64,000 bases of DNA from Candidatus Levyibacteriota bacterium (GTDB lineage: Bacteria > Patescibacteriota > Microgenomatia > Levybacterales > UBA12049), in assembly GCA_016432345.1 (NCBI GenBank), contig CP066685.1, forward strand, positions 368,236-432,235, given 5' to 3'. Positions 11,651 to 64,000 of the stretch are shown in pieces (position 1 is the first letter of the stretch; every line of letters starts with the position of its first letter). A program made the translations under genes and the position numbers. A model generated the notes under the pieces. It had not been told where the DNA came from, ran no database searches, and saw only the letters and a list, made by a program, of their open reading frames with translations.

Positions 11651-12697
11651 ATGAGGATACATTGGTAGCGATAATATCTTATGAGCATATTTTTCAGAAA
11701 TCGGAAATCTCCCCTCTCTTTTACCAACAAATCGGTAAGCTTTTTGTAAATGAATGGGAATCGGGTAATGAATTCCTACTGCAATTCCTTTTTCTTCTAG
11801 ATATTTTAGCAATCTGTCGCGGCCGTCAATTTGAATAACATACAGATGATATACATGGATGGTAATTGGATCATGGTAAGGAATTATAATATTAGCATCT
11901 TTTAAAAGCTTGTTATATATATGTGCATTCTTAACTCTTTGTTTATTCCACCTGTCAAGATACTTTAATTTTACTCTTAGAATTGCCGCTTGGAGTGTGT
12001 CAAGCCTTCTATTCCATGCAATAAAATCATGATGATATTTTGCTGACTGTCCATAATTTCTCATTTTTTTAACAGTTTCATAGATTTGTTTATCATTCGT
12101 TACCAATGCGCCCGCGTCGCCAAATGCTCCAAGATTCTTTCCTGGATAAAAAGAAAAAGCAGCAAACACCCCAAAAGAACCTACGCGTAACCCATCATAT
12201 TCGGCTCCGTGTGCTTGACATGCGTCCTCAATAACATGTAGTTTATGTTTTTTTGCGATTTCAAGAATAGTTGTCATCTCTGCTGGTTGGCCATAAAGAT
12301 GCACCGGCATAATGGCTTTTGTTTTTTTGGTAATTTTGTTTTCAATTTTTGTGGGATCAATATTATATGTTTTTGCGTCACAATCAACCCATACAGGTAT
12401 TGCTCCCACCATTGAAATAGAGGAGGTAGAGGCAATAAAGCTATTGACGGGAGTAATTACTTCATCTCCTTTGCCTATATTCAAAGCTCTCATTCCTAGC
12501 TCTAAAGCCGATGTGCCATTATCTAACCCAACACAATACTTTACGCCGCAATACCTTGCAAATTCTTCCTCAAACTTATCTATCTCTTCTCCTAAAATAT
12601 ACGAGGATGAGTGAATTATTTGATTGATACGTTCTTTTACTTCCAATGCAATCCCAAGGTGACGGATATTTATATCAGCGAAAGGTATTTTTTCCAT
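11570..12697 (-). CDS. DegT/DnrJ/EryC1/StrS-family PLP-dependent sugar aminotransferase (WlbC/WbpE-like)
   Basis: 375 aa. Motifs [32 protein letters not shown] and [16 protein letters not shown] (PLP lysine context). Confidence 0.9.
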
Positions 12698-13181
12698 GAG
12701 TTTTTTTAGGATTTTTTTTTAGCTTTTTTGCTGGATTACCAGCGACAGTAAAGCTCGCTGGTACGTCCTTTGTGACAACAGCGCCAGCCCCCACGACTGC
12801 ATTTTTACCTATAATCACCCCTCCTAAAATGGTTGCATTACTTCCTATTACCGCACCTTTTTTAACCAATACTTTTTCAAGCTTCCATGTTTTGTTAAGA
12901 GCCTTTTTGATAGTAGGATTGTTATCATTAATAAATATAACACCATGACCGATAAAAACATCGTCTTCAATCGTTACTCCATTGCATAGAAACGAGTGTG
13001 ATTGTATGCGACAACGTCTCCCTATTTTTACCCGTTCTTGCATTTCAACAAATGCGCCAATTTGTGTATCATCCCCGATTTCACATTTATATAAATTAAC
13101 AAAGTCATAGATTTTTACATTTTCTCCCACTAAAACATTACGAATGGCTTTTTTTGGCTCATTAATCGAAATTATCTTCAT
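12675..13181 (-). CDS. Left-handed beta-helix (hexapeptide) sugar N-acetyltransferase (WlbB/WbpD-like)
   Basis: 168 aa. Hexapeptide periodicity in [46 protein letters not shown] and [25 protein letters not shown]. Confidence 0.85.
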
Positions 13182-13184
13182 ATA

Positions 13185-14210
13185 TTACGTTATTTTTATC
13201 ACACGCGAATGCTTATGTAAAGATTCTTGCGCCGCCTCGAGCAGTCGTATAACTTTCAATCCGCTTTTTCCATCTGTGATAGGATTTTTATTCTCAATAA
13301 TGCAAGAAATAAAATGATTCACCTCTTCTTTTAACGGTTCTTTGTCCACAATTCCTGGAATTCTTGTTCCTCCTGAATGGAGCGCAATTTGGAATTCTGC
13401 AAAGGTGATACCACGGGTATTTTTAATGACATTCGCGTTTTTATCAAAAATCTTTACTTTTCCTGAAATCTGCACGTCATCAAATAATACCATTTTTTTA
13501 GCACCAACAATTGTTATCTCTCGTATTTTGATAGGGTCAATCCAGCTTAGTATGAGGTTTGCAAAAATATTATTTTCAAATTTGATTGAGACATTGACAA
13601 TATCCTCAATATTTTTTTGTAAATAGCATTCTCCCGAAGCCACAACAGTGAGTGGTTTCTCATTCACAAAATATAATAGCATTGAAAAATCATGCGGGGC
13701 TAGATCCCATAAAACATTTACGTCTTTTCGAATAGGGCCGAGACTTCTTCGTTGGAAATGCAAATGCCTAATTTTCCCAAGCGCCCTTTTTAGCAGAAGA
13801 TTTTTTATATAGATAACAGAAGAGTTAAAATGAAAAACATGTCCTACCATTAGCTTCAAATTGTTTCCGTTTGCGATTTTGATTAATTCGCGACATTCAT
13901 TGGAAGAGTAAGCGAGAGGTTTTTCTATAAAAACGTGTTTTTTAGCAAGTAGACAGTTTTTGGCAATGTTAAAATGCGTTCTTGTCGGCGTTACTACGAA
14001 AATAGCATCAATAGATGAATCGTGTAAAATATCGAGATAGTTGTTTGTTATTTTGATATGCTTATATAGCCGTTTTATGTCTTGTAAAGCCTTGCTATTG
14101 AGATCTGCGCAATAGACAAGGCTGGCGTCTGAAGATTCATTAATGACTCTCGCGATATTTGGTCCCCAATATCCGTAGCCAATAATTCCAACTCTTACCA
14201 GATTGCCCAT
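13185..14210 (-). CDS. Gfo/Idh/MocA-family NAD-dependent sugar oxidoreductase (WlbA/WbpB-like)
   Basis: 341 aa. N-terminal Rossmann motif VRVGIIGYGYWGPNIARV and the EKP motif (VFIEKPLA). Confidence 0.85.
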   Translation of the reverse strand: MGNLVRVGIIGYGYWGPNIARVINESSDASLVYCADLNSKALQDIKRLYKHIKITNNYLDILHDSSIDAIFVVTPTRTHFNIAKNCLLAKKHVFIEKPLAYSSNECRELIKIANGNNLKLMVGHVFHFNSSVIYIKNLLLKRALGKIRHLHFQRRSLGPIRKDVNVLWDLAPHDFSMLLYFVNEKPLTVVASGECYLQKNIEDIVNVSIKFENNIFANLILSWIDPIKIREITIVGAKKMVLFDDVQISGKVKIFDKNANVIKNTRGITFAEFQIALHSGGTRIPGIVDKEPLKEEVNHFISCIIENKNPITDGKSGLKVIRLLEAAQESLHKHSRVIKIT

Positions 14211-46300: not shown

Positions 46301-47338
46301 ATGAAAATTTTAATTACTGGAGGAGCAGGATTCATTGGAATTAATGCTGCAGATTATTATCTAAAGAGGGGATTTAAGGTAATTATACTTGACAATTTTT
46401 CAAGAAAAGGCGGCAGAGAGAATATAGAATGGTTTAAAGAAAAACATAGCTCTAATTTAATTGTTATTAAGGCTGATGTGCGTTATGGTCAGAAAAAGTT
46501 ACAGAATATAATAGAAAAGGTAAATATAGTTTTACATCTTGCAGGGCAGGTTGCTGTAACTAGTTCAGTTGAAAATCCACGCGAAGATTTTGAAAGTAAT
46601 ACATTAGGCACATTTAATGTACTTGAAGCAACTAGACTTTCTGGGAATAATCCAATTTTTATTTATAGTTCAACAAATAAAGTATATGGAGAATTAGACG
46701 ATCTAAAAATTATTGAGACTGAAAATAGATATAAATTTAAAAGTTTACCATTTGGTATTCCCGAGACAAGAGCGCTTGATTTTCACTCACCGTATGGCTG
46801 CAGCAAGGGAGCGGCTGAACAATACGTACGAGATTACGCGCGTATTTATGGACTTAATACGATAGTTTTTAGGCAATCTTGCGTCTATGGTCGGCGGCAA
46901 TTTGGCATTGAAGATCAGGGATGGATAGCGTGGTTTATAATCGCGTTGACCATAGGCAAAAAAATTACCATTTTTGGGAACGGAAAACAGGTACGGGATT
47001 TGCTTTTCATAGATGATTTACTTGATGCATATTTTATGGCAGCAAAGAATATTAAAAAAACACGAGGGCAAATTTACAATATAGGCGGAGGAATAAAAAA
47101 TACAATTTCAATTTGGCTTGAATTAAAGCCAGTCCTTGAAAAACTTTTTAAGAAAGAAATTAATATGTCAACATTAAACACAAGACCAGGGGACCAGCCA
47201 ATATTTATTTCAGATATCAGGAAAGCAAAAAAAGATTTCGATTGGGAACCCAAAGTAGATGTTAAAAAGGGGATTGAAAAGCTATATGCATGGATACAAG
47301 AAAATAAGAGCATGTTCCAGAAACTTTTTGCCTCATGA
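46301..47338 (+). CDS. Extended SDR NAD-dependent sugar epimerase/dehydratase (CDP-paratose/tyvelose 2-epimerase-like)
   Basis: 345 aa. Motifs ILITGGAGFIGINAADYYL, SSTNKVYG and YGCSKGAAEQY (YxxxK). Confidence 0.75.
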   Translation: MKILITGGAGFIGINAADYYLKRGFKVIILDNFSRKGGRENIEWFKEKHSSNLIVIKADVRYGQKKLQNIIEKVNIVLHLAGQVAVTSSVENPREDFESNTLGTFNVLEATRLSGNNPIFIYSSTNKVYGELDDLKIIETENRYKFKSLPFGIPETRALDFHSPYGCSKGAAEQYVRDYARIYGLNTIVFRQSCVYGRRQFGIEDQGWIAWFIIALTIGKKITIFGNGKQVRDLLFIDDLLDAYFMAAKNIKKTRGQIYNIGGGIKNTISIWLELKPVLEKLFKKEINMSTLNTRPGDQPIFISDIRKAKKDFDWEPKVDVKKGIEKLYAWIQENKSMFQKLFAS

Positions 47339-49310: not shown

Positions 49311-50264
49311 ATGTCTTTTTGGCAACAAAGAGTAGTACTGGTAACAGGCGCTAGTGGTTTTGTTGGATCACGCCTTGTTAATCTACTAAATAAAAAAAAA
49401 TCAAAAGTAATTGCCTTATCCAACAAGGAGATAAAATCCATAAGAGGAATAATTGACGTAAGAGGATCAGTTGAAAATTTTCAGTTGTTAAATGAGATAA
49501 TAAAGAAATATAAAGTTAACACAATTTTTCATCTAGCAGCTCAGTCAATAGTAGAGATTGGTCAAGATAATCCCATTAAGACCTTTGAGGTAAATATTAG
49601 AGGTACATGGAATATATTAGAATGCGCAAGGGAAAATAATATACAAAAAGTAGTAATTGCATCTACAGTTCATGTTTATGGCGATAATCCAAAAGTTCCA
49701 TTCAAAGAAGAATATTTTCCTCAGCCATCAAGACCATATGAGACATCTAAAGCTTGCGCAGATTTGCTAGCACAATCTTTTGCCGACACTTATGATTTAT
49801 CAGTTGAGATTCCCAGATTTGTTAATATTTATGGACCGGGAGACCTTAATTTCTCACGTTTAATTCCAAAAGTTATTAAAAGTATTTTACAGGGCAAGCA
49901 ACCAGAAGTTTGGGATGTGGGTTCAATACGTGACTTTCTTTATATTGATGATGCCATTACTGCCTATCTTATGATTGCTGAAAAAAGGGTAGATAATAAA
50001 AAAAGATTAAGAATTTTTAATTTTGGTACCGGAAACCAGATTAAAATTTATGATCTAGTGCAAAAAATAATTCAAATAATGGCAAAAGGAATAAAAGTTA
50101 GAATAGAACAGCTACCCCAAGATAGATCTAATGAGATAAAAAAACAATATGTATCAATTGCAAAAGCAAAAAGAGAATTAGGATGGTATCCAAAAGTAAC
50201 CTTAGATAACGGCCTTTCAAAAACTATTACATGGTATCAAGGGAATTCCCACCTTTTTATATGA
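49311..50264 (+). CDS. Extended SDR NAD-dependent sugar epimerase/dehydratase
   Basis: The track ORF starts at 49197, inside the upstream gene. ATG 49311 is preceded by GAAGGAGGGA (49296-49305). Motifs VLVTGASGFVGSRL and YETSKACADLL (YxxxK). Confidence 0.8.
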   Translation: MSFWQQRVVLVTGASGFVGSRLVNLLNKKKSKVIALSNKEIKSIRGIIDVRGSVENFQLLNEIIKKYKVNTIFHLAAQSIVEIGQDNPIKTFEVNIRGTWNILECARENNIQKVVIASTVHVYGDNPKVPFKEEYFPQPSRPYETSKACADLLAQSFADTYDLSVEIPRFVNIYGPGDLNFSRLIPKVIKSILQGKQPEVWDVGSIRDFLYIDDAITAYLMIAEKRVDNKKRLRIFNFGTGNQIKIYDLVQKIIQIMAKGIKVRIEQLPQDRSNEIKKQYVSIAKAKRELGWYPKVTLDNGLSKTITWYQGNSHLFI

Positions 50265-52281: not shown

Positions 52282-53394
52282 ATGAACAAAATGTATTATA
52301 AAAATATTTTTATGTATTCAAATCATCAATCAACGGCAACTTCTAACATAGAAGAGTATTTTGTTTTGCATACAAATAAGCTTGTTGTTTTCGTTTTAGA
52401 TTATCGAAAATTGGATACAAGCTTAGTGCGACTTTATAAGAATGGAAGTTTGGTTGAAGAAAAAAAAGTCAAACTTTCCCAAAACAGATTCGGTTATTAC
52501 CTGTTATGGTATGTTAATTATCTTATTTTTCTTATGACGTATTTCACAAGTAAAGAAAAAGTAATTGTCATCTCGTGGAGTCCAATCTCTTTTTTTGGAA
52601 TGTTCTTACAAAAAAAGTTAAGAAATATAGATTTCCTTTTTTGGGACGGAGATTATTTTCCTCCTGTAAATATTTCGCTTAGATTATTTGAAGGACTTAA
52701 AAGATATTATAACCAAAAGGTAAAATATGCCTTCTATTCGGGAGATTTAATAAATGAAAAAATGAATGGTAAGGTACTCAATACCCCTTATAGAAAAACC
52801 GCTTTGTGGGGAGTAATGCCTAGAAATATTAAACGAAAACTTGATAAAAAAAATCTTACAATTTTATTTGTAGGTTTTATCAAAGATTCTCAAGATTTGG
52901 AGTTTTTATTTGATTTTCTAAAGGGACAAAAGAATTATAAACTTAAAATAATTGGAATGTGCGATGGGGATTTAGATAAAAAATACAATAGGATAATAAA
53001 AGAAAATGGGATAGAGAATCAAGTTTATTTTCCAAACAGATTTTTTTCCGATAAAGAATTAGAAGATGTATCAAAAACCTGTCAGGTGGGTATTGCTCTT
53101 TATGATATTACACCAACAAATGGCACCTATTATACAGATCCCGGCAAAGTTAAAACCTATGCTTCGTTTGGTTTACCAATCATTATGTCTGACATGTCCG
53201 CAATAGCGCCATATATAAAACGATTTAATTGCGGTATCCTCATTAAAAAAAATGATACGGAATTGGGTGATGCACTTTTAGATATGAGAAAAAATTATAC
53301 AAAATATCTCAAAGGGTTAGAAAAATTTAACGACTATTTTTATTACGAAACGCACTATCGGAAGGCACTTCGTATTTTAGAAAAAAATGACTAA
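52282..53394 (+). CDS. Divergent GT-B-like glycosyltransferase (tentative)
   Basis: 370 aa. The C-terminal half has a Rossmann-like layout (ILFVGFIKD..., KLKIIGMCDG, FGLPIIMSD), but there is no clean E-x7-E motif. Genomic context is GT genes. Confidence 0.35.
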   Translation: MNKMYYKNIFMYSNHQSTATSNIEEYFVLHTNKLVVFVLDYRKLDTSLVRLYKNGSLVEEKKVKLSQNRFGYYLLWYVNYLIFLMTYFTSKEKVIVISWSPISFFGMFLQKKLRNIDFLFWDGDYFPPVNISLRLFEGLKRYYNQKVKYAFYSGDLINEKMNGKVLNTPYRKTALWGVMPRNIKRKLDKKNLTILFVGFIKDSQDLEFLFDFLKGQKNYKLKIIGMCDGDLDKKYNRIIKENGIENQVYFPNRFFSDKELEDVSKTCQVGIALYDITPTNGTYYTDPGKVKTYASFGLPIIMSDMSAIAPYIKRFNCGILIKKNDTELGDALLDMRKNYTKYLKGLEKFNDYFYYETHYRKALRILEKND

Positions 53395-54367
53395 AAAAAA
53401 TAAGATAGAACCAGTAACAATAGTACTGCCAACAAGAAATGCCGCAACAACTGTTTTATTATCGTTGCAAAGCATACATAAGCAAACATACCCTATAAAA
53501 GAAGTTATTGTTGTTGATAATGCGTCTTCTGATGATTCTATAAAAATTGTTAGAAATTTTGCCAAAAAATCAAGAATACCCATTCGTATTGTTTCACGCC
53601 AAAAAAACTATGGACTTGGTGCAAGTTTTAATTTTGGAGTGGAATCTTCGAAAACATCGCTTGTGATCTTAATGCATTCAGATTGTATTTTGCCAACAGC
53701 AGGTGAACTGGATAAGTTAACAAGGCCTTTAATAGAAAATAACGATATTATTGCTACATACCCAACACTTTTTTTGCCAGAAAGTGTCTGGCAAACATAC
53801 AGTTTCTGGGAAAAATGTTTTTTTTCTCGTAAAGTAGGAAAAGGAGCTGCTGGCCTTCTAACAAAATTTGATTGTATAAGAAAAAAAGCGTATCAAGATG
53901 TTGGAGAAATTGATGTAAAAAATTTTGGTTTTGGTGGGTTTGATGCGGATATGCATGATAAACTACGTAAAATTGGTTTCGTTGCTAAAAGCGAAGCGGT
54001 AGTTATGCATTTACACTATTTGGGCGAAGGTTTTTCCTTAGGTAAATTGCTCGCTAAACTAAGAATGGATTCTAGAACCAATGGAAGGTGCATTCGTATG
54101 AGAGGGTTGTCATTGATACACGATGGCCTTTTTTTATTGATAAGGCCTAGTTTAGCAATTTTACCTTTTATACCCTATTTACATACTATTGGTATTGTAA
54201 TGTTGATCATCTACTCTTTTTTGTATACACATAAAGTGTTTATAACCAGATCTACGTTCCAAGATCCTAGAATAATTCTTTTGCCCTTGCTAAATGTTTT
54301 TCTTCTTTATTACGAAACTTTTTGGACCATAGAGGCTTTCTTATTTGGAAAAAATAAAATAGAATAA
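53387..54367 (+). CDS. Glycosyltransferase family 2 with C-terminal transmembrane segments
   Basis: 326 aa. Motifs VTIVLPTRNAA, IVVDNASSDDS and LMHSDC, with a hydrophobic tail LAILPFIPYLHTIGIVMLIIYSFLY. Confidence 0.75.
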   Translation: MTKKNKIEPVTIVLPTRNAATTVLLSLQSIHKQTYPIKEVIVVDNASSDDSIKIVRNFAKKSRIPIRIVSRQKNYGLGASFNFGVESSKTSLVILMHSDCILPTAGELDKLTRPLIENNDIIATYPTLFLPESVWQTYSFWEKCFFSRKVGKGAAGLLTKFDCIRKKAYQDVGEIDVKNFGFGGFDADMHDKLRKIGFVAKSEAVVMHLHYLGEGFSLGKLLAKLRMDSRTNGRCIRMRGLSLIHDGLFLLIRPSLAILPFIPYLHTIGIVMLIIYSFLYTHKVFITRSTFQDPRIILLPLLNVFLLYYETFWTIEAFLFGKNKIE

Positions 54368-54372
54368 TATAT

Positions 54373-55359
54373 ATGGAAGAGAAGGTTTTAATTACTGGAA
54401 TTACTGGTTTTACTGGATCGCATATGGCTGATTATATCCTAAGTAAAGGGATAAAAGTCTATGGTTTAAAGCGGTGGAATTTGTCTCGGCTTCGAAATAT
54501 TGCCCATATACTTTCTGAAGTAGAATTTTTTGATTGCGATTTAACAGATCCAATAGGAATAAGCAATATTATTGAAAAAATAAAACCGACAAAAATTTTT
54601 CACTTTGCTGCAGAAAGTGGTCTTGGTCCATCATGGACTCACCCAAGTCATTATATGGATGTGAATTATAAAGGAACGCTCAACCTTTTAGAAGCAGTGA
54701 GAAAAGCAAATATAACTCCAAAAATACTTATCTCAAGCAGTGTTGCGATGTATGGCGATATTCCCAAAGAGCATTTACCAATGAGAGAAGAAACGCCACT
54801 TAATCCTTTAAATCCTTATGCTGTGTCAAAAATAGCACAGGATTATATTGGTTATGTCTATCACAAAACGTATGGTCTTCATATTGTTCGCACTCGGGCT
54901 TTTAATATAGAAGGGCCAAGACGTGATAATATATTCGGTCTTCCATGGTATGCCTACCAGATTGCGCTTATTGAAGCAGGAAAACAAAAGTCAATACTCG
55001 AAAGCGGATATGTTTTGGCAAAACGGAATTTTATTCACGTAAAAGATATTGTTAATGCGTATTGGTTGGCTTTAAAACATTGCAAGCCGGAAGTATACTT
55101 GGTCGGTTCCGATAAGAAGGAAAATATCGGTACGTTTGATGAGGTGATAAAAAGCTTGATAAAAAAATCTACATTCAAAGGGGAAATAGAGCACAAGGTA
55201 ATTGAAAAATTTATTCGCGTCACGAATGAAACTGTTGTTATTGGAGATTGTAGAAAATTTTATGCAGCCACTGGTTGGAAACCTAAACTATCTTTTGAAG
55301 ATATTATTGACGACGTTTTGGTCTACTGGCGTAATTTTGTTAAAAAAGATCTCTACTAA
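54373..55359 (+). CDS. Extended SDR, GDP-mannose 4,6-dehydratase/reductase-like nucleotide-sugar enzyme
   Basis: 328 aa. Motifs VLITGITGFTGSHMADYIL, GLKRW...HI and YAVSKIAQDY (YxxxK). The overall layout resembles the GMD/Rmd family, but I could not see a clear dehydratase T-[DE] signature (SSSVAMYG). Confidence 0.65.
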   Translation: MEEKVLITGITGFTGSHMADYILSKGIKVYGLKRWNLSRLRNIAHILSEVEFFDCDLTDPIGISNIIEKIKPTKIFHFAAESGLGPSWTHPSHYMDVNYKGTLNLLEAVRKANITPKILISSSVAMYGDIPKEHLPMREETPLNPLNPYAVSKIAQDYIGYVYHKTYGLHIVRTRAFNIEGPRRDNIFGLPWYAYQIALIEAGKQKSILESGYVLAKRNFIHVKDIVNAYWLALKHCKPEVYLVGSDKKENIGTFDEVIKSLIKKSTFKGEIEHKVIEKFIRVTNETVVIGDCRKFYAATGWKPKLSFEDIIDDVLVYWRNFVKKDLY

Positions 55360-55374
55360 TCTATGTAATAATAT

Positions 55375-55920
55375 ATGAAGTTTACTGAAACCGAAATTAG
55401 TGGTGTATATATTATAGAACCAGAACCGAAGAATGATCACAGAGGTTACTTCGAAAGAATTTACTGTTTAGATGAATTTAATCGAAAAAGAATCAACTTT
55501 AAAATTGCCCAGATGAATCGTTCTTTATCTTTTCGTAAAGGTACTATAAGAGGAATACATATGCAAAAATCTCCAAAATCAGAAGATAAATTAATTTCTT
55601 GTATACAAGGAGCGGTATTTGATGTTGTTATTGATTTAAGAGAAGAATCTAAAACATTTGGCAAATGGATCGGCAATACATTGAGTTTTGAAAATAAAAA
55701 AATGGTATTTGTTCCTAAAGATGTTGCGCATGGGACACAATCTTTACAAGATAATACTGTAGTACAATATCCTGTTTCAGAATTTTATTCTCCAGAACTT
55801 GCAACCGGTATTCGCTGGAACGATCCGTATTTTAAAATTACCTGGCCGATACAAGAAAATGTAATAGTATCAGATATTGATGCGAGTTGGCAGCTTTTTT
55901 CTCCTCATCATGAAAAATAA
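55375..55920 (+). CDS. RmlC-like cupin nucleotide-sugar 3,5-epimerase
   Basis: 181 aa. Motifs GVYIIEPEPKNDHRGYFERIY, RGIHMQ and FVPKDVAHGTQSL, the hallmark of dTDP-4-dehydrorhamnose 3,5-epimerase-type enzymes. Confidence 0.85.
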   Translation: MKFTETEISGVYIIEPEPKNDHRGYFERIYCLDEFNRKRINFKIAQMNRSLSFRKGTIRGIHMQKSPKSEDKLISCIQGAVFDVVIDLREESKTFGKWIGNTLSFENKKMVFVPKDVAHGTQSLQDNTVVQYPVSEFYSPELATGIRWNDPYFKITWPIQENVIVSDIDASWQLFSPHHEK

Positions 55921-56854
55921 CTTTTTATTAACAGGAGCTACAGGATTTATAGGTTCAAATTTAGCTAGGGAGCTAGTGAGGCAAGAGCAAAACGTGAGTG
56001 TTATTGTAAGAAATAAAGAACTAAATTGGAGGTTAAAAGATATAGCAGATAAGCTTGATATTTATGAATGCAATATACAAGATGAAAAACTTCTAGAAAT
56101 AGTAAATAGAGTTAAGCCAGACTACATTTTCCACTTAGCTCGTTATGGTAACTTACCTCAGGAAGAAGATATTTTAAAAATGATAGATATAAACTTTAAA
56201 GGAACAGTAAATCTTATTAATGCTGCCAAACAAAATCCCTTTAAACTCTTGATTAATACGAGCAGTTGTATTGAATATGGAGTGAAAGAGCAAAGCATGA
56301 AAGAAACTGATTATCTTGTTCCTATAAACAATTTTGGAGTTGTAGCAGCTGGAATAACTCTTTATGCTCAAAAAGAAGCAATAAGAAATAACCTTCCCAT
56401 TATTACATTACGATTATTTACTCCCTACGGATACTATGAAGATGGTTTTCGTCTTATTCCATCGGTTATCAAAAGTGCGATAGAAAACGAACTCATTAAA
56501 GTTTCTACTCCGGAAAATGTCAGGGATTTCATTTTTATAGAGGATGTTGTAGATGCTTACATAGGTGCAACGGGGATAAGACATAATCCTGGAGAAATAT
56601 ATAATATTGGAAGCGGTAGGCAACATTCTATTGGAGATATTGTACGATTGATACTTGAAATTACAAAAAGTAAGTCAAATGTTCAGTGGGGTGCAGTAAA
56701 AAAACAGACGAGATACATAGAGCCAGCAAAATGGCAGGCTAATATATCAAAAACAAAAAAAATACTCCGTTGGGAACCAAAAAATTCTATAGAATTTGGT
56801 CTACAGAAAGCCATACAATGGCTTAATCTACACAAAGATCTATATAATAATTAA
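55910..56854 (+). CDS. Extended SDR-like protein lacking the canonical YxxxK at the expected position
   Basis: ATG 55910 (MKNNFLLTGATGFIGSNL). The track start 55877 lies inside the upstream gene. At the position where the paralogs have P-x3-Y-x3-K, this protein reads PINNFGVVAAG. Confidence 0.65.
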   Translation: MKNNFLLTGATGFIGSNLARELVRQEQNVSVIVRNKELNWRLKDIADKLDIYECNIQDEKLLEIVNRVKPDYIFHLARYGNLPQEEDILKMIDINFKGTVNLINAAKQNPFKLLINTSSCIEYGVKEQSMKETDYLVPINNFGVVAAGITLYAQKEAIRNNLPIITLRLFTPYGYYEDGFRLIPSVIKSAIENELIKVSTPENVRDFIFIEDVVDAYIGATGIRHNPGEIYNIGSGRQHSIGDIVRLILEITKSKSNVQWGAVKKQTRYIEPAKWQANISKTKKILRWEPKNSIEFGLQKAIQWLNLHKDLYNN

Positions 56855-58083
56855 TGAAAGCAATTCAGCAGGCAGTAATTCTAGCGGGTGGTTTGGGTAC
56901 CCGCATGAGACCTCTAACAAATATTACTCCTAAGCCTATGATACCAATTCATGGCAAGCCATTTCTGGCGTATCTTATGGAACTTTTGAAAAATAATGGA
57001 ATTGAGGAAGTTATTATTTTGGTTGGGTACCTACATGAACAGATTGAGGAATATTTCGGCAATGGCAAAAAGTTTGGCTTAAAAATTACATACTCGTATG
57101 ATCCAGTAGAAGCAGATACGGGAACTCGCGTACGAAACGCATCACGACTTTTTGCTAAGCATTTTCTTCTGTTGTATGGAGATAATTATTGGCCACTTAA
57201 TCTATCAGTGCTAACAAGATTTTATGAAGATAAAAAAAAGAAAGCGTCAACAGTAGTATTTAGCAATTTTGATAATTCAACAAAAAATAATATGCTCATA
57301 AATGAAAACGCAATTGTAGAAATATATGATAGGGAAAGAAAAAAGAAAAATCTTAATGGTGTTGATATTGGATTTTTTATTCTCGATAGAGATGTTTTAA
57401 CGTTGTTACCAAGCGGAAACTTTTCTTTTGAAGAAGTTATATTACAAAAACTTATTAAAAATCGTCAATTGGCTGGGTTTTTAACTAATCATAAATATTA
57501 CAGCTTAACCAATCAGGATAGAATAAAGGGGATAGAAACATATTTTGAGAAGAAAAAGGTAATTTTTTTGGATCGGGATGGCGTCATCAACAAAAAACCA
57601 CCAAAAGCCCAATATGTGACAAAATGGAAAGATTTTCTTTTTTTGCCAAAAGCAAAAGAAGCGCTGATACTTTTGAAAAAGAAAAAATACATGATATTTA
57701 TTCTTTCGAATCAACCTGGGGTTGCAAGAGGTATGATGACAGTTCCTCAATTGGAGGATATCCATAGTCATCTCAGAGGTGAATTAGATAGTATTGGTGT
57801 AATGCTTGATGGAATATACAGCTGTATGCATGGGTGGGATGATAGTTGTTTTTGTCGAAAACCTAGTCCTGGTCTTTTTTTTGAGGCGGCAGCAGAACAC
57901 TTTATAAATCTTTACGATAGCTATTGCGTTGGGGATGATCCCCGCGATATAATAGCGGGGTCATTGGCTGGATGCAAAACTATTTTTTTGACGAGCAGAA
58001 AAGACAAACTAGAAAATTTTGGGAAACAACAACCTACTATGATTACGAAAGATTTGTATAGCATTAGCCAGAAATTACCATGA
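56854..58083 (+). CDS. Fusion of a sugar-1-phosphate nucleotidyltransferase (HddC-like) and D,D-heptose 1,7-bisphosphate phosphatase (GmhB, HAD)
   Basis: 409 aa. N-terminal motif AVILAGGLGTRMRPLT..PKPMIPI. C-terminal motifs VIFLDRDGVIN, SNQPGVARG, CFCRKPSPGLF and VGDDPRDIIAG. Confidence 0.8.
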   Translation: MKAIQQAVILAGGLGTRMRPLTNITPKPMIPIHGKPFLAYLMELLKNNGIEEVIILVGYLHEQIEEYFGNGKKFGLKITYSYDPVEADTGTRVRNASRLFAKHFLLLYGDNYWPLNLSVLTRFYEDKKKKASTVVFSNFDNSTKNNMLINENAIVEIYDRERKKKNLNGVDIGFFILDRDVLTLLPSGNFSFEEVILQKLIKNRQLAGFLTNHKYYSLTNQDRIKGIETYFEKKKVIFLDRDGVINKKPPKAQYVTKWKDFLFLPKAKEALILLKKKKYMIFILSNQPGVARGMMTVPQLEDIHSHLRGELDSIGVMLDGIYSCMHGWDDSCFCRKPSPGLFFEAAAEHFINLYDSYCVGDDPRDIIAGSLAGCKTIFLTSRKDKLENFGKQQPTMITKDLYSISQKLP

Positions 58084-59060
58084 TAATTTCTCGAACACCT
58101 CTTAGAATTAGTTTTGTTGGCGGTGGAAGTGATATTGCTGCTTTTTATCAACATACCCCGGGCGCCGTTGTTACTACAGCTGTTAATAAATATGTGTATA
58201 TAGCGGTGAATAAGCAATTTGATGGAAGAATTCTTATCAATTACTCAAAAACAGAAATAGTAAATAAGGTTTCAGATATCGAGAATAATTTAGTTAGGGA
58301 AGCATTAAAGTTGACAGGTGTTATGGGGGGTATTCATATTACATCTGTTGCAGATATTCCATCCGAAGGTACAGGAATGGGCTCTTCTAGTTCTTACCTT
58401 GTCGGGTTGCTAAATGCACTTTATGCTTTTCAGGGAAAACATGTTAATGCAGAGAGATTAGCTAGGGATGCGAGTAAAATAGAAATAGATATTTTAAAAA
58501 AACCTATTGGAAAACAAGACCAATATATTGCGGCATATGGTGGTTTGCAGTTTATGCAGTTTAATTCTGATAGTAGTGTTTATGTTGATCCAATTATTTG
58601 TAAAGCAGAAATAAAAAGATTATTAGAAAAGCGCTTATTGCTTTTTTATACAGGTATAACAAGATCATCAGATCCAATTCTGGCAAAACAGACAAATAAT
58701 ATGGCCACTCAAAAAAAGAAGAGACAGATAATGAGAAGAATGGTATTGCTTGCAAAAAAAATGCAGATTGCAATAAACAAAAACAATTTAGCTTCATTTG
58801 GAGAAATGCTTCATGAAAACTGGACATTAAAAACACAAATGGCAGAGGGAGTTACAAATTTTCAGATAAATAAGTGGTATGAAACAGGCCGTAAAAATGG
58901 AGCTCTTGGAGGAAAACTTTTGGGAGCAGGGGGTGGAGGATTTCTTCTGTTTTATGCTATAGAAGAAAAACATAAGAAAATTATTCATGCGCTCTCGGAT
59001 TTAATTTATCAAGATCTTACTTTAGAACCACAGGGAAGTAAGATTGTATTTATTGATTGA
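58080..59060 (+). CDS. hddA: GHMP-family D-glycero-alpha-D-manno-heptose 7-phosphate kinase (HddA-like)
   Basis: 326 aa. Motifs IISRTPLRISFVGGGSDI and the GHMP motif PSEGTGMGSSSS, then GGKLLGAGGGGF. ATGA overlap with the upstream gene. Confidence 0.75.
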   Translation: MIISRTPLRISFVGGGSDIAAFYQHTPGAVVTTAVNKYVYIAVNKQFDGRILINYSKTEIVNKVSDIENNLVREALKLTGVMGGIHITSVADIPSEGTGMGSSSSYLVGLLNALYAFQGKHVNAERLARDASKIEIDILKKPIGKQDQYIAAYGGLQFMQFNSDSSVYVDPIICKAEIKRLLEKRLLLFYTGITRSSDPILAKQTNNMATQKKKRQIMRRMVLLAKKMQIAINKNNLASFGEMLHENWTLKTQMAEGVTNFQINKWYETGRKNGALGGKLLGAGGGGFLLFYAIEEKHKKIIHALSDLIYQDLTLEPQGSKIVFID

Positions 59061-59743
59061 TGAAAAATAAAAATATCATCATAAAAAAAGATATTGAACT
59101 AGATCCAAAAGATTTTATAAATGGATATCTTTTGGAAATAACACGCTGTCTTGCATCTATTGACAAAACAAAAATAGAGCTTGTTATTGATGCACTCGTT
59201 GATGCATACAAGAAAGATAGAAAAGTATTTATTCTCGGAAACGGTGGGAGCGCATCGACTGCTTCCCATATGGCATGCGATTTTGGAAAAGGAACATTGC
59301 AGCGAGTATATGACAATACAGAGCGGAGATTTCGCGTGATATCTCTTACCGATAATGTAGCGCTTATGACTGCTTTTGCCAATGATCTAACTTTTGACGA
59401 TATTTTTGTTCAGCAGTTGCGAAATTTGGTTGAGACAGACGATGTTGTCATAGCGCTTTCCGGCAGTGGAAATAGTCTAAATGTAGTCAAAGCAATAGAA
59501 TATGCAAAAACATGCGGAGCAAAAACAATTGGAATTTTAGGTTTTAAAACAGGAGGTAAAGTTGGTAGTATTGTTGATTATTCAATAATTGTTGATAGTA
59601 ATCATTATGGTCCAATCGAAGATATTCAATTAGTTATCAACCATATGATTGCCGCTTGGATTGCAAAAGTTAAACACATTTATGATAAAAATCTACAGGG
59701 TGTTAATGAGAATAAGGCTGTGCCTTTCACTTTCGGTGCGTAA
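59057..59743 (+). CDS. gmhA: SIS-domain phosphoheptose (sedoheptulose-7-phosphate) isomerase
   Basis: 228 aa. Motifs FILGNGGSASTASHMACDF and ALSGSGNSLNVVKAIEYAK. ATGA overlap with the upstream kinase. Confidence 0.8.
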   Translation: MMKNKNIIIKKDIELDPKDFINGYLLEITRCLASIDKTKIELVIDALVDAYKKDRKVFILGNGGSASTASHMACDFGKGTLQRVYDNTERRFRVISLTDNVALMTAFANDLTFDDIFVQQLRNLVETDDVVIALSGSGNSLNVVKAIEYAKTCGAKTIGILGFKTGGKVGSIVDYSIIVDSNHYGPIEDIQLVINHMIAAWIAKVKHIYDKNLQGVNENKAVPFTFGA

Positions 59744-59766: not shown

Positions 59767-60045
59767 ATGGAGGAATTAATTTCTTTATACGACAACGTAT
59801 TAATTTATTATCCAAACGTTTTTTTACTAGTACTATTTTTCCTTAGTATTTTAGGAATAATTAAGGTAAGAAGAGTTGTTGAAGAAGCAAAAAGAGAATT
59901 AAATAACAAAAAAAAGAAATCCTCTTTCGTTTCGATCGCAAGAGTATTTCTTATTCGAATAAATACATTATTAGCACGGCATGAGATACAAATAAAAAAA
60001 ATAGTTAAAAAGGTAGGAAAACAAGTATTAATTGAAAATAAATGA
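59767..60045 (+). CDS. Small single-pass membrane protein, unknown function
   Basis: 92 aa. One hydrophobic helix (VFLLVLFFLSILGIIKV) followed by a K/R-rich tail. ATGA overlap with the downstream gene. Confidence 0.4.
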   Translation: MEELISLYDNVLIYYPNVFLLVLFFLSILGIIKVRRVVEEAKRELNNKKKKSSFVSIARVFLIRINTLLARHEIQIKKIVKKVGKQVLIENK

Positions 60046-60551
60046 AAAAAATAAGTATCTTATTTATTATTTGTTATTTTATATTTTTGCCAAAAGCGTT
60101 TGCATCCACAGAGTATACTTTTCCCTGGCCAGGAATATTGCCGGACAACAAATTGTATAAAATAAAAGTTTTAAGAAATAAAATTATTGAAAAGATGATT
60201 GTGAGTCCTGTAAAAAAGGTCGAGTTTGATTTACTCATGGCAGATAAAACAATTTATGCCAGCAAATTATTAGTAGATAAAGGAGAGATTGACTTGGCTA
60301 AAGATATTGCCTTAAAAGGCGAGAATTACTACAGCATTCTTGCGCAAGATTACAATAAATCCCTTCAGCAAAAGAAAAAAATTCCCGTCCAGCTAGATCG
60401 GAAAATAACATTGGCTGCTATAAAACATCAGGAAGTTTTTAAGCAACTTGAAGATGCAGTTGCAGGTGAAAATAAGAAGACTTTTCAAATTGCAAGTAGA
60501 TTTTCAAAAATTAACTACGATTTCATCGTAAGTTTAAGAAATCGTAAATAA
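60042..60551 (+). CDS. Secreted protein, DUF5667-like (tentative), paralog of 35952..36479
   Basis: 169 aa. Signal peptide MKKISILFIICYFIFLPKAFA, then STEYTFPWPGILPDNKLYKIK and a helical body. Confidence 0.5.
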   Translation: MKKISILFIICYFIFLPKAFASTEYTFPWPGILPDNKLYKIKVLRNKIIEKMIVSPVKKVEFDLLMADKTIYASKLLVDKGEIDLAKDIALKGENYYSILAQDYNKSLQQKKKIPVQLDRKITLAAIKHQEVFKQLEDAVAGENKKTFQIASRFSKINYDFIVSLRNRK

Positions 60552-63660: not shown

Positions 63661-63678
63661 GTAATGACAGTTTATAAT
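63650..63678 (+). promoter_or_regulatory. Candidate sigma70-type promoter TTGCAT-17 nt-TATAAT
   Basis: TTGCAT at 63650-63655, a 17-nt spacer and TATAAT at 63673-63678. AGGAAA (63691-63696) lies 5 nt before the ATG at 63702. This is the only junction downstream of 43180 where I saw both hexamers. Such a match can arise by chance in AT-rich DNA. Confidence 0.35.
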
Positions 63679-63701
63679 TACGTTTCTGTCAGGAAATTAA
63701 T

Positions 63702-64000
63702 ATGATTACAACAAGAACTCCTTTGAGGATACCAATTGGCGGCGGTGGAACAGACTTGCCAGGTTTCTATTCTAAATACGGCTCTTTCTTTATAAGTGCT
63801 GCAATTGATTATTATATATACATTGTCGTAAAACGCCGCCCAGTTAGAGGGATAAAAGTAGCCTATATGCAAACAGAAGAGGTGCAAAGAATAGAAGAGA
63901 TCAAACATCGTATAGCTAAGGCTGCTTTACAATATTTGCATATCAGTGTAGATCGGGGTCTTGAAATTGTGTCTATAGGTGATTTTCCGGCTGGAACTGG
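63702..64000 (+). CDS. GHMP-family sugar kinase, second HddA-like paralog (partial; the 3' end lies outside the window)
   Basis: It is not in the ORF track because it has no stop in the window. ATG 63702 gives MITTRTPLRIPIGGGGTDLPGFYSKYG, matching the N-terminal signature of 58080..59060. Confidence 0.7.
   Translation, partial: MITTRTPLRIPIGGGGTDLPGFYSKYGSFFISAAIDYYIYIVVKRRPVRGIKVAYMQTEEVQRIEEIKHRIAKAALQYLHISVDRGLEIVSIGDFPAGT

Follow-up and report, generated by a model that had tools for sequence, protein, structure and literature searches.

In Campylobacter jejuni, the 6-hydroxy heptose pathway proceeds in the order Cj1427, Cj1430, and Cj1428 (MlghC) (PMC10680097). The MlghC reductase carries a Ser-Phe-Lys catalytic set, whereas DdahC of the 6-deoxy pathway carries Ser-Tyr-Lys (PMC7949155), and the catalytic residues of Salmonella enterica RmlC are H63, K73, Y133, and D170 (PMC7949155). 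The GMD fingerprint is [ST]SE...Yx3K, in which the Glu serves as the sole acid/base (PMC8987622). The GTP determinants of the heptose nucleotidyltransferase HddC are Glu80, within the motif E-x-x-P-L-G-T-G-G-A, and Ser53 (PMC6981941). Here we compare with these systems an operon lying in a 64-kb stretch of DNA (the window) from an uncultured member of the Levybacteria (Patescibacteria/CPR), for which a first-pass annotation had proposed a complete GDP-heptose pathway with adjacent tailoring enzymes.

Gene order and the heptose-activation core

Six plus-strand genes, with intergenic spacing of +15 to -11 nt, were found at the coordinates and on the strand first assigned to them, and the earlier domain calls agree with the Pfam families given below.

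54373-55359, plus strand: SDR1, 328 aa, a GMD/Rmd-like extended nucleotide-sugar SDR (GDP_Man_Dehyd/Epimerase; GDP_Man_Dehyd at 259.9 bits)
55375-55920, plus strand: RmlC-type cupin, 181 aa (dTDP_sugar_isom, PF00908, 200 bits)
55910-56854, plus strand: SDR3, 314 aa from ATG, an extended SDR (Epimerase, 132.6 bits); the mechanical ORF begins earlier, at TTG 55877
56854-58083, plus strand: nucleotidyltransferase-HAD fusion, 409 aa (NTP_transferase, PF00483, 80.6 bits, plus HAD)
58080-59060, plus strand: putative HddA-type GHMP kinase, 326 aa (GHMP_kinases_N/C, PF00288 and PF08544)
59057 (TTG) or 59060 (ATG) to 59743, plus strand: SIS/GmhA protein, 228 or 227 aa (SIS_2, 70.4 bits)

These six genes form a single translationally coupled operon inside a cell-envelope glycosylation island. 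The ATGA/TAATG chaining of the fusion, kinase, and GmhA genes noted previously can be read in the junctions, which are TAATG between SDR3 and the fusion, ATGA between the fusion and the kinase, and TTGATG between the kinase and GmhA, the last two genes overlapping by 4 nt if the TTG start is used and by 1 nt with the ATG start. The cupin gene begins 15 nt after SDR1 and overlaps SDR3 by 11 nt. Shuffled sequence gave promoter-like and terminator-like matches at least as often as the operon did. Four independent Logan assemblies carry the same operon with identical proteins.

The best four PDB matches of the GHMP kinase are all HddA-type heptose kinases (3k85, 4n3o, and 4usk/4usm, 125-140 bits), and the next family is fucokinase at 57 bits. 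HddA is likewise the top NCBIfam model at 152.9 bits, followed by fucokinase at 96.8, but the score lies below the HddA equivalog cutoff (NF049969, 600 bits), marking a distant member. The protein is thus predicted to be an HddA-type D-glycero-D-manno-heptose 7-phosphate 1-kinase of the alpha-anomer route. For the SIS-domain protein, 12 of 15 PDB matches are phosphoheptose isomerases, including those in the best places (top 1tk9, 76 bits), and the remaining three are DiaA, a paralogue; the top NCBIfam model is TIGR00441 gmhA (107.9 bits, under the cutoff of 209.45). A GmhA-type sedoheptulose-7-phosphate isomerase is therefore the probable assignment.

The fusion protein comprises a nucleotidyltransferase (residues ~1-230) and a GmhB-type HAD-IIIA domain (~233-409). 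The HAD domain scores above the cutoffs of TIGR01662 (89.7 versus 44.6) and TIGR01656 (118.1 versus 84.15), below the GmhB-specific cutoffs of PRK08942/NF006506 (144.9 versus 178) and the alpha-type NF050049 (96.5 versus 250), and matches the GmhB structure 3l8h at 95 bits. Its HAD motifs are invariant in 22 homologues: DRDGVIN (D240-R-D-G), C324-x-H326...C332-x-C334-R-K-P, and G-D-D-x-R-D. We take the domain to be a putative GmhB-type heptose-1,7-bisphosphate 7-phosphatase.

Genes for the kinase, nucleotidyltransferase, GmhA, and HAD are syntenic in dozens of genomes from many phyla, and the kinase adjoins the nucleotidyltransferase at 53 of the 65 genome loci bearing the latter. Counting against a heptose pathway, every heptose-specific NCBIfam model scores far under its curated cutoff for the window proteins. 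Taken together, GmhA, the kinase, and the fusion would constitute a heptose-activation core of the alpha-anomer rather than the HldE/ADP type, the anomer being assigned because the kinase is of the GHMP type. As judged from the families, GmhA would convert sedoheptulose-7-phosphate to D-glycero-D-manno-heptose-7-phosphate, the kinase would phosphorylate O1 to yield the alpha-1,7-bisphosphate, and the GmhB domain would then remove the 7-phosphate.

The fusion is the sole NTP-transferase detected within the 64-kb window. Its nucleotidyltransferase domain has the RmlA fold and is not HldE cytidylyltransferase-like, and HddC (6jq8) aligns with residues 6-200 at 70-72 bits. The NCBIfam score with HddC (NF049965, 107.5) is neither above the cutoff of 300 nor clearly above those with the nucleotidyltransferase families Arch_glmU (110.1), MurU (105.7), and Man1P-GTase (105.5). 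The two HddC GTP determinants are absent from the domain, which has Asp83 and Leu56 instead and the loop D-P-V-E-A-D-T-G-T-R. None of the 120 CPR homologues has the guanine-reading signature; in its place they carry [S/D]PVExDTGTR, with Ser (85 sequences), Leu (12), and Asp (10) among the residues at the position equivalent to Glu80. Non-CPR nucleotidyltransferases of heptose modules keep the Glu and PLGT[GA]GA in 22 of 24 cases. The window enzyme belongs to a separate clade with a conserved "TGTR" loop unlike that of HddC. The nucleotide carrier of the activated heptose could be GDP. Of the complete GDP-heptose pathway first proposed, heptose activation is supported by the kinase, GmhA, and GmhB matches and by synteny, while GDP as the carrier loses the support of the HddC determinants.

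SDR1 and the proposed 4-keto intermediate

We favor, by a modest measure, a pathway in which the operon activates heptose and then tailors it via a 4-keto intermediate to an epimerized 6-hydroxy heptose. SDR1 would oxidize C4, most likely without dehydration such that the 6-hydroxyl is retained; the RmlC-type cupin would epimerize C3 and/or C5; and the 4-keto group would be reduced by SDR3, or possibly by a canonical SDR encoded at 49311. The product would then pass to the conserved GT1/GT2 pair encoded upstream. That heptose is tailored here had been surmised from the sequence, and synteny supports it. SDR1-family genes lie beside the heptose core not only in CPR but also in Chloroflexota, one deltaproteobacterium, and one archaeon of the Micrarchaeota, frequently accompanied by a cupin and another SDR, and SDR1 is the tailoring gene always found with the core, even where no other SDR is adjacent (loci L005 and L006). 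In CPR loci the variable genes next to SDR1 encode cupins, TylC3-like C-methyltransferases, and DegT aminotransferases, all of which are 4-keto-sugar enzymes.

The best PDB match of SDR1 is Rmd (2pk3, 170 bits, 35% identity), with the C. jejuni GDP-heptose 4,6-dehydratase 7us5 at 143 bits, closer than any epimerase, and GMDs at ~135. The protein keeps a Ser/Tyr/Lys triad (Y149-x3-K153), but the dehydratase Glu is gone from the segment SSSVAMYG. At the aligned fingerprint position, GMD has TSE, DdahA SSE, Rmd SEE, and SDR1 SVA. SDR1 does not carry the 4,6-dehydratase fingerprint of GMD, DdahA, and DmhA, and scores 162.9 with TIGR01472 against a cutoff of 415; nor does any other SDR in the window have this fingerprint. 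The caution of the first-pass annotation, that no clear 4,6-dehydratase signature could be discerned, was therefore well placed.

Among 120 SDR1 homologues, the Tyr and Lys are invariant and 99 have xEEYG. Loss of the Glu-Glu pair is restricted to the 21 nearest sequences, which have V[AST][MV]YG; in this clade of 21 sequence clusters both Glu residues have given way to hydrophobic Ala/Met. Ancestrally, the family was probably a heptose 4,6-dehydratase with [ST]xEEYG. At L102, a locus from Micrarchaeota, the EE-type SDR1 would act as the dehydratase, because an RmlD-like reductase and a cupin are already beside it. Because the clade of the window SDR1 lacks both Glu residues but retains Ser/Tyr/Lys, we consider a 6-deoxy product of this operon unlikely and C4 oxidation of the NDP-heptose likely. 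A C4-dehydrogenase must recycle its bound NADH, as Cj1427 does with alpha-ketoglutarate, and the lack of any such route for SDR1 evident from sequence counts against C4 oxidation.

So does the fact that the top solved relative of SDR1 is a reductase, such that SDR1 could be one too. It would then be a terminal 4-ketoreductase, like Rmd or DmhB of Yersinia pseudotuberculosis, with the 4-keto sugar made by SDR3, by the products of 49311 or 46301, or by an enzyme encoded elsewhere. The Rmd-like length of ~328 aa and the JGI name of relatives, "GDP-4-dehydro-6-deoxy-D-mannose reductase," agree with this assignment, and an enzyme that only reduces can do without the dehydration Glu. We nonetheless regard it as unlikely, in view of the window's lack of an SDR with the dehydratase fingerprint, the constancy of SDR1 with the core where no other SDR adjoins it, the reductase already present beside SDR1 in L102, and the GMD-type Glu retained in the ancestral xEEYG.

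We hold still less with a classical 6-deoxy-heptose pathway of the DmhA/DmhB or DdahA/B/C type, in which SDR1 would dehydrate across C4 and C6 by means of another acid/base residue. The probable dehydratase ancestry of the family and its nearness to 7us5 speak for such a pathway, as does the variation in acid/base sets among dehydratases (PMC8987622). However, GMD relies on the one Glu (PMC8987622), both Glu positions are hydrophobic throughout the 21 clusters, and no replacement residue was identified in SDR1.

SDR3 and the cupin

Alignment of SDR3 with 4zrm, 6pmh, 6bi4, and 2pk3 placed Phe142 and Ala146 at the catalytic Tyr and Lys positions (the Tyr/Lys of 4zrm, 6bi4, and 2pk3), and the canonical Y-x3-K dyad is thus missing. 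The product of 55910 was rightly called an atypical SDR in the initial annotation, but a role as a conventional reductase was not borne out. SDR3 retains the Rossmann GxxGxxG, Ser119, and an invariant Glu122-Tyr-Gly, and has a new Arg78 at the end of beta-4 that is specific to the Tyr-less clade. SDR3 is under purifying selection, and is maintained by it, as its dN/dS is 0.09-0.12. The AF2 model (pLDDT 90.5) has a generic NS-SDR fold and shares no more than 25% identity with any solved structure.

We propose SDR3 as a candidate, if uncertain, atypical C4-ketoreductase. Against this, SDR3 is more extreme than MlghC and PglF in that not only the Tyr but also the Lys has been lost. Glu-less SDR1 occurs with a Tyr-less SDR3, and SDR1 of the EE type with an SDR3 having Y/K; this covariation is limited to a single clade and may represent one or two evolutionary events only. 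An exception outside the CPR is locus L100, where an EE-type SDR1 lies beside an F..K SDR.

Loss of both catalytic residues could also mean that SDR3 is a binding or scaffolding pseudoenzyme, with SDR1 both oxidizing and reducing C4 with its own NAD(H) around the cupin, or with the SDR at 49311 as the reductase. The former relay would be redox-neutral and would explain how a Glu-less SDR1 could recycle its NADH, and the 49311 protein has an intact S/Y/K triad, its orthologues in L096 and L097, the two nearest relatives, scoring 568-650 bits. We consider a pseudoenzyme improbable, given the retained motifs, the gain of Arg78, the low dN/dS, and the activity of the Tyr-less SDRs MlghC and PglF; in addition, 49311 orthologues are missing from most CPR loci.

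The cupin scores above the rmlC equivalog cutoff (TIGR01221, 169.8 versus 155.75 bits), and in the PDB it matches genuine RmlCs at 135-142 bits and C. jejuni GDP-heptose epimerases at 43-55. Its H62, K72, Y132, and D169 each lie one position before the S. enterica RmlC residues, matched by position and not by residue-level alignment. By these measures the cupin is a true RmlC-type NDP-4-keto-sugar C3 and/or C5 epimerase. The annotation had held that a closest relationship to dTDP-rhamnose enzymes would argue against its reading, and for the cupin that relationship was found (142 versus 43-55 bits), although genomic context still ties the cupin to heptose genes: the heptose modules of L099, L100, and L102 have a cupin next to them, and that of L101 has one within 4 kb. 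The cupin is equally close to genuine dTDP RmlC and to cupins of other heptose cassettes, which counts against the favored pathway. The RmlC-like scores, and a cupin that travels with its own nucleotidyltransferase and SDR in L007, could mean that the cupin, with or without SDR3, serves a rhamnose-like pathway of its own, acting on a dTDP- or other NDP-6-deoxyhexose supplied by genes beyond the window, but this is improbable given the coupling of the cupin gene to both neighbors, the cupins near heptose modules elsewhere, and, within the 64 kb, the absence of a second nucleotidyltransferase, RmlB, or RmlD and of any SDR reaching the RmlB/RmlD cutoffs. The initial account of the locus thus stands in its heptose core, its tailoring context, and its doubt about dehydration, and gives way on GDP, on the affinity of the cupin, and on SDR3 as an ordinary reductase.

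Comparison with known systems

The predicted core has the same four activities and superfamilies as the HddA/HddC pathway, namely an SIS isomerase, GHMP kinase, HAD-IIIA phosphatase, and RmlA-fold nucleotidyltransferase. It differs in the fusion of the last two and in the absence of the Glu80/Ser53 pair and ExxPLGTGGA loop of HddC.

The proposed tailoring follows the three-step logic of the D-glycero-L-gluco-heptose branch of C. jejuni HS:2 (Cj1427 C4-dehydrogenase, Cj1430/MlghB C3/C5 epimerase, and Cj1428/MlghC C4-reductase), likewise without 6-deoxygenation. Both systems have a His/Lys/Tyr/Asp cupin epimerase and a reductase, here a candidate, with Phe where the catalytic Tyr would be, and in C. 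jejuni too it is the 6-hydroxy branch that pairs with a Tyr-less reductase. However, none of the three parts is orthologous: the cupin belongs to the dTDP-RmlC type, SDR3 does not resemble GDP-fucose synthase and, unlike MlghC, is also without the Lys, and no entry recognizable as Cj1427 is among the 60 best PDB matches listed for SDR1, the likeness being one of proposed function only.

With DmhA/DmhB of Y. pseudotuberculosis and DdahA/B/C of C. jejuni 81-176, the operon shares an SDR1 family related to the GMD-type heptose dehydratase 7us5. By analogy, loci in which an EE-type SDR1 relative occurs with a cupin and a reductase probably encode 6-deoxy-heptose pathways, whereas the window SDR1 is without the catalytic Glu and 6-deoxygenation is unlikely. 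The likeness to the RmlB/RmlC/RmlD set for dTDP-L-rhamnose lies in a cupin that reaches the RmlC threshold with residues at the catalytic positions; in contrast to that set, the island is without RmlA, RmlB, and RmlD, neither SDR1 nor SDR3 comes close to the RmlB/RmlD cutoffs, and the cupin gene sits inside a heptose operon. Finally, PglF/WbpM (Mx3K) and MlghC (Fx3K) are naturally active SDRs whose catalytic Tyr is replaced, as it is in SDR3, but these enzymes keep the Lys, whereas SDR3 has Fx3A and has gained Arg78. The operon would thus follow a logic like that of the Campylobacter and Yersinia pathways, yet with different enzyme lineages and unusual active sites.

Operon architecture and surroundings

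The six open reading frames proposed in the first-pass annotation were confirmed, with exact coordinates and plus-strand orientation, and its domain calls agreed with the Pfam result for each.

Genes of the heptose operon (start in the window, strand, product; Pfam result)
54373, +, SDR1, a GMD/Rmd-like SDR; GDP_Man_Dehyd/Epimerase
55375, +, cupin, an RmlC-type epimerase; dTDP_sugar_isom
55910, +, SDR3, an atypical SDR; Epimerase
56854, +, fusion of an HddC-like nucleotidyltransferase (NTase) to GmhB; NTP_transferase+HAD
58080, +, HddA-type kinase; GHMP kinase
59057, +, GmhA; SIS

The chaining of the fusion, kinase, and GmhA genes by ATGA and TAATG overlaps was likewise borne out by the junction sequences, which held TAATG, ATGA, and TTGATG overlaps, an 11-nt overlap between the cupin and SDR3 genes, and a 15-nt gap between those for SDR1 and the cupin. 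Four independent assemblies carry the operon with identical proteins and the same gene order, and a protein of an NCBI MAG, matching at 100% identity, assigns the window to Candidatus Levyibacteriota. Promoter-like and terminator-like matches in the window showed no excess over shuffled sequence, and tRNA and Rfam scans of the window were both empty.

The window has a G+C content of about 33% and holds one long co-directional glycosylation island encoding YfhO, PMT_2/GT-C, GT87, GT2, and GT4 proteins, a flippase, methyltransferases, and a UDP-glucose-dehydrogenase-like protein.

Features surrounding the operon (coordinates in the window, strand, description)
167-30529: unusually dense array of lipid-linked-sugar-dependent glycosyltransferases, with three YfhO-family and at least seven PMT_2/GT-C-like large membrane proteins, and GT87 and PTPS_related membrane proteins
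11570-14210, -: DegT aminotransferase (405 bits), unannotated 168-aa ORF, and GFO/IDH/MocA oxidoreductase; this trio interrupts the co-directional island and looks like a 3-oxidase/aminotransferase amino-sugar set
46301-47338, +: extended SDR with SSTNKVYG, typical of CDP-tyvelose 2-epimerase-like enzymes; NCBIfam is ambiguous between RmlB and GalE
49311-50264, +: SDR with canonical S/Y/K (ASTVHVYG...PYETSK), the paralogue nearest to SDR3 within the window
52282-53394, +: GT1-like protein (370 aa)
53387-54367, +: GT2 protein (326 aa), with the GT1-like gene directly upstream of SDR1
59767-60551, +: 3' of GmhA, a 92-aa ORF with no family match, then a DUF5667 protein
63678-63998, +: second GHMP-kinase-like ORF running past the window end, 50 bits to the HddA-like kinase and right after a GFO/IDH/MocA gene; it suggests a further sugar-1-phosphate activation step downstream

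The heptose activation core and its nucleotidyltransferase

All four of the best solved relatives of the kinase are HddA-type heptose kinases (125-140 bits, with fucokinase the next family at 57), and its best NCBIfam model is HddA. Phosphoheptose isomerases made up 12 of the 15 PDB matches to GmhA, including the best, the other three being the paralogue DiaA. The C-terminal half of the 409-aa fusion scored above the HAD-IIIA and histidinol-phosphatase-type cutoffs and matched GmhB models and structures best; the DxDG, Cys/His zinc-loop, and GDDxRD motifs of this domain are invariant among homologues. Every heptose-specific equivalog cutoff was widely missed by the core proteins, which are therefore distant members of their families, and synteny compensates for this weak similarity. 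Scanning with the fusion alignment gave, among the matches listed, 79 genome loci, mostly from relatives outside the CPR (Patescibacteria) at about 30% identity, and so brought to light the clade with the HddC signature. The NTase was present in 65 of the listed loci, and these 65 held an HddA-like kinase in 53 cases, GmhA in 43, and an NTase fused to HAD in 40; they ranged over Clostridia, Bacteroidota through Verrucomicrobiota, and one archaeon. An ADP-heptose (HldE-type) route was rejected, since the kinase is of the GHMP and not the PfkB type and the NTase belongs to PF00483, and the heptose core of the first-pass reading stands. From established knowledge of the HddA family, we take the predicted product of the core to be an alpha-configured NDP-heptose.

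The earlier claim that the nucleotide is GDP fared less well. The GTP preference of Yersinia pseudotuberculosis HddC has been ascribed to Glu80 in the loop E-x-E-P-L-G-T-G-G-A and to Ser53 (PMC6981941). An ungapped alignment to the HddC structure placed Asp83 and Leu56 of the window NTase at these positions, with the loop reading D-P-V-E-A-D-T-G-T-R. Of 120 CPR homologues, 85 have Ser in place of Glu80, 12 have Leu, and 10 have Asp, with Leu56, Thr89, Gly90, and Arg92 conserved in all of them. By contrast, 22 out of 24 NTases from heptose modules of other phyla retain the Glu and PLGT[GA]GA. A TG[TK]R loop recurs in the fusions that adjoin SDR1 relatives in Chloroflexota, in a deltaproteobacterium, and in an archaeon of the Micrarchaeota. 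Heptose-module NTases therefore fall into two clades, and that of the window, judged by its sequence, belongs to the one with no characterized member, here called the TGTR clade. NCBIfam scores did not discriminate (HddC 107.5, archaeal GlmU-like 110.1, ManC-like 105.5, MurU 105.7), and the hints from partner enzymes conflict, because the relatives of SDR1 use GDP-sugars and those of the cupin dTDP-sugars. Although the HddC determinants are replaced, guanine might nevertheless be recognized by the acidic residues 86 and 88 acting with Arg92. The TGTR fusions mark heptose cassettes widespread in CPR bacteria, DPANN archaea, Chloroflexota, and deltaproteobacteria, and they may load alpha-heptose onto a nucleotide other than GDP or embody a new mode of guanine reading.

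Two further observations concern fusions elsewhere. In a Chloroflexota locus (L100, 8006-9820) the fusion carries an extra C-terminal PRK domain (phosphoribulokinase/uridine kinase family), giving 604 aa in total, which may be a hint to the nucleotide of the TGTR clade. Loci from Clostridia, Bacteroidota, Gastranaerophilales, and Desulfovibrionaceae (L012, L013, L015, L016, L019, L021, L023, L025, L032, L036, L039) combine an HddC-signature fusion, kinase, and GmhA with a GalE-like SDR (ASTSA[VI]YGE, about 21% identical to SDR1), suggesting an uncharacterized GDP-heptose epimerase.

A conserved module and its tailoring enzymes

Related CPR loci share a constant string of genes, namely GT1, GT2, SDR1, a variable stretch, the fusion, the kinase, and GmhA, with accessory genes lying in the variable stretch or just after GmhA and differing in content between loci.

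Variable content of CPR loci
Cupin and SDR3: window, L099
SDR3 and a TylC3-like C-methyltransferase: L096, L097, L098
DegT aminotransferases, with or without a formyltransferase: L005, L098, L099
Nothing: L005, L006

Since NDP-4-keto sugars are the substrates of all these accessory enzymes, the constant member, SDR1, is the likely 4-keto generator. In three other phyla, SDR1 relatives with an xEEYG motif (EE-type) directly adjoin the fusion and kinase, with a cupin nearby. The archaeal locus L102 reads cupin, RmlD-like reductase, EE-type SDR1, fusion, kinase, and SIS protein, an arrangement that follows rhamnose-type logic and requires SDR1 to act as the dehydratase.

The GT1/GT2 order is conserved in nearly all CPR loci examined (L088-L092, L096-L099; 350-680 bits), making both proteins candidate transferases for the modified heptose. 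Identity between the window and L096 is mosaic (SDR1 94%, SDR3 79%, kinase 76%, fusion only 57%), which suggests cassette exchange within the locus. L096 and L097 also resemble the window in arrangement after GmhA, where a short unannotated ORF precedes a DUF5667 protein. Split genes for transketolase/E1-like thiamine-diphosphate enzymes lie in L005 (15199-16928), L006 (15368-17100), and L100 (13827-14762) and may serve two-carbon branch supply or sedoheptulose metabolism.

Among solved structures SDR1 is closest to Rmd (170 bits, 35% identity); next come the GDP-heptose 4,6-dehydratase of C. jejuni at 143 bits and GMDs at about 135. In GMD the fingerprint is [ST]SE...Yx3K, where the Glu is the only acid/base, and GalE has [ST]...Yx3K (PMC8987622). 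SDR1 reads S-V-A...Y-x3-K, the same site being TSE in GMD, SSE in DdahA, and SEE in Rmd, which agrees with the earlier failure to see a clear 4,6-dehydratase signature; the fingerprint was found in none of the four extended SDRs of the window. In a survey of 120 clusters homologous to SDR1, the Tyr and Lys are invariant. The motif x-E-E-Y-G occurs in 99, and the remaining 21, which are precisely those nearest to SDR1 (70% identity or more), have V-[AST]-[MV]-Y-G. We infer that the family was ancestrally an NDP-heptose 4,6-dehydratase and that the Glu-less clade of the window kept C4 oxidation alone, so that the 6-OH would be retained.

The first-pass annotation had named kinship of the SDR and cupin genes to dTDP-rhamnose enzymes as evidence against its reading, and for the cupin this kinship was found on similarity: it exceeds the RmlC equivalog cutoff (169.8 versus 155.75) and reaches 135-142 bits against genuine RmlCs, compared with just 43-55 for the C. 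jejuni GDP-heptose epimerases. RmlA, RmlB, and RmlD were sought in the 64-kb window, and none was found. A role for the cupin in a separate pathway is opposed by this absence, by its overlap into the operon, and by the recurrence of cupins beside heptose modules of several lineages. Its scores to the cupins of L100 and L101 (120-142 bits) bring it no nearer to them than to genuine RmlCs, and heptose modules thus appear to have acquired their cupins from among RmlCs more than once. His62, Lys72, Tyr132, and Asp169, numbered from the translation, each lie one position before the Salmonella enterica RmlC residues His63, Lys73, Tyr133, and Asp170 (PMC7949155), and this match leads us to expect an active epimerase. 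Overall, the earlier interpretation is supported in part: it held for the heptose core and the missing dehydratase signature, whereas the HddC determinants expected for a GDP product were absent and the cupin proved closest to dTDP-rhamnose RmlC.

In alignments to four solved SDRs, the catalytic Tyr corresponds to Phe142 of SDR3, the Lys to Ala146, and the second Ala of HLAA to Arg78. The window protein and its 120 closest homologues (121 sequences) have Tyr/Lys in 89, Asn/Lys in 15, Thr/Lys in 5, Asp/Lys in 1, Phe/Thr in 6, and Phe/Ala in 5, and the nearest relatives of the window SDR3 are non-Tyr forms. Besides these two sites, only position 78 is specific to the clade: 27 of the 32 non-Tyr sequences have Arg there, and otherwise the residue is Ala or Ser. 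GxxGxxG, Ser119, and Glu122-Tyr-Gly are retained. Decay into a pseudogene was rejected, given a dN/dS of 0.09-0.12 against two orthologues (0.04-0.18 in neighboring genes), the Tyr-less state of 32 of the 121 sequences, and the specific Arg78. By these measures SDR3 is a maintained protein with a remodeled active site. Its confident AlphaFold model (pLDDT 90.5) found by Foldseek only generic NS-SDR neighbors (GalE, RmlB, and Rmd folds) at up to 25% identity, and a metagenome scan with SDR3 gave only 8 loci. Candidates for the final reduction are SDR3, which lacks the Lys too, the SDR at 49311 as a possible alternative C4-reductase, and SDR1 itself. The SDR at 49311 was rejected as a universal partner, having high-scoring orthologues in L096 and L097 only.

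Predicted pathway and the Campylobacter precedent

The three tailoring enzymes of the window would carry out C4 oxidation, C3/C5 epimerization, and C4 reduction, without deoxygenation. Tyr-less SDR3 accompanies Glu-less SDR1 in the window, L089, L096, L097, and five further contigs matched through identical length, and EE-type SDR1 occurs with Tyr/Lys SDR3 in L090, L098, L099, and two further contigs. The exception is one 117095-bp contig with a Glu-less SDR1 and a Tyr/Lys SDR3, which may be explained by two SDR3 paralogues, as in L089, where a Thr/Lys form at 6637 adjoins the Glu-less SDR1 and a canonical Tyr/Lys form follows GmhA at 11535. This pairing is limited to one clade and so may reflect few evolutionary events; outside the CPR, L100 joins an EE-type SDR1 to an F..K SDR. 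We offer tentatively, as a doubtful but possible joint reading, that the TGTR clade uses a nucleotide other than GDP or reads guanine in a new way and that SDR1 changed from dehydratase to C4-dehydrogenase with SDR3 remodeled in step, the second half of which would place the change, by Glu loss, in one Levybacteria/Parcubacteria lineage.

CPR bacteria rely on cell-cell contact with hosts, and we know of no experimental work on their surface glycans. The module of GT1, GT2, SDR1, tailoring cassette, NTase-GmhB fusion, kinase, and GmhA is conserved in many CPR lineages and has related versions in DPANN archaea and in further phyla; it predicts modified heptoses as a common envelope component in these carriers. 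What is new here is a variant of a pathway type already known, and its value is for that reason incremental and not conceptual. Its main worth lies in predictions that can be tested, on the surface glycans of CPR and DPANN organisms and on how SDRs and NTases work, and the operon poses three biochemical questions: with which nucleotide the heptose is activated once the guanine loop of HddC has been replaced, whether loss of a single Glu is enough to turn a 4,6-dehydratase into a C4-dehydrogenase, and how an SDR lacking Tyr and Lys achieves catalysis.

In C. jejuni, the 6-hydroxy pathway begins with the C4-dehydrogenase Cj1427 and ends with MlghC (Ser-Phe-Lys), and the 6-deoxy pathway begins with the dehydratase DdahA and ends with DdahC (Ser-Tyr-Lys) (PMC7949155, PMC10680097). 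PglF/WbpM (Mx3K) is another Tyr-less SDR that is active (PMC8987622). The pairing of SDR1 and SDR3 forms parallels that of C. jejuni, in which a Tyr-less reductase goes with the 6-hydroxy pathway and a Tyr form with the 6-deoxy pathway, although the window trio is not orthologous to the Campylobacter enzymes. By analogy, this pairing and the activity of PglF/WbpM support the oxidation, epimerization, and reduction assigned to the trio. If true, the joint change in SDR1 and SDR3 would be a convergent re-invention of the Cj1427/MlghC solution for making 6-hydroxy heptose epimers.
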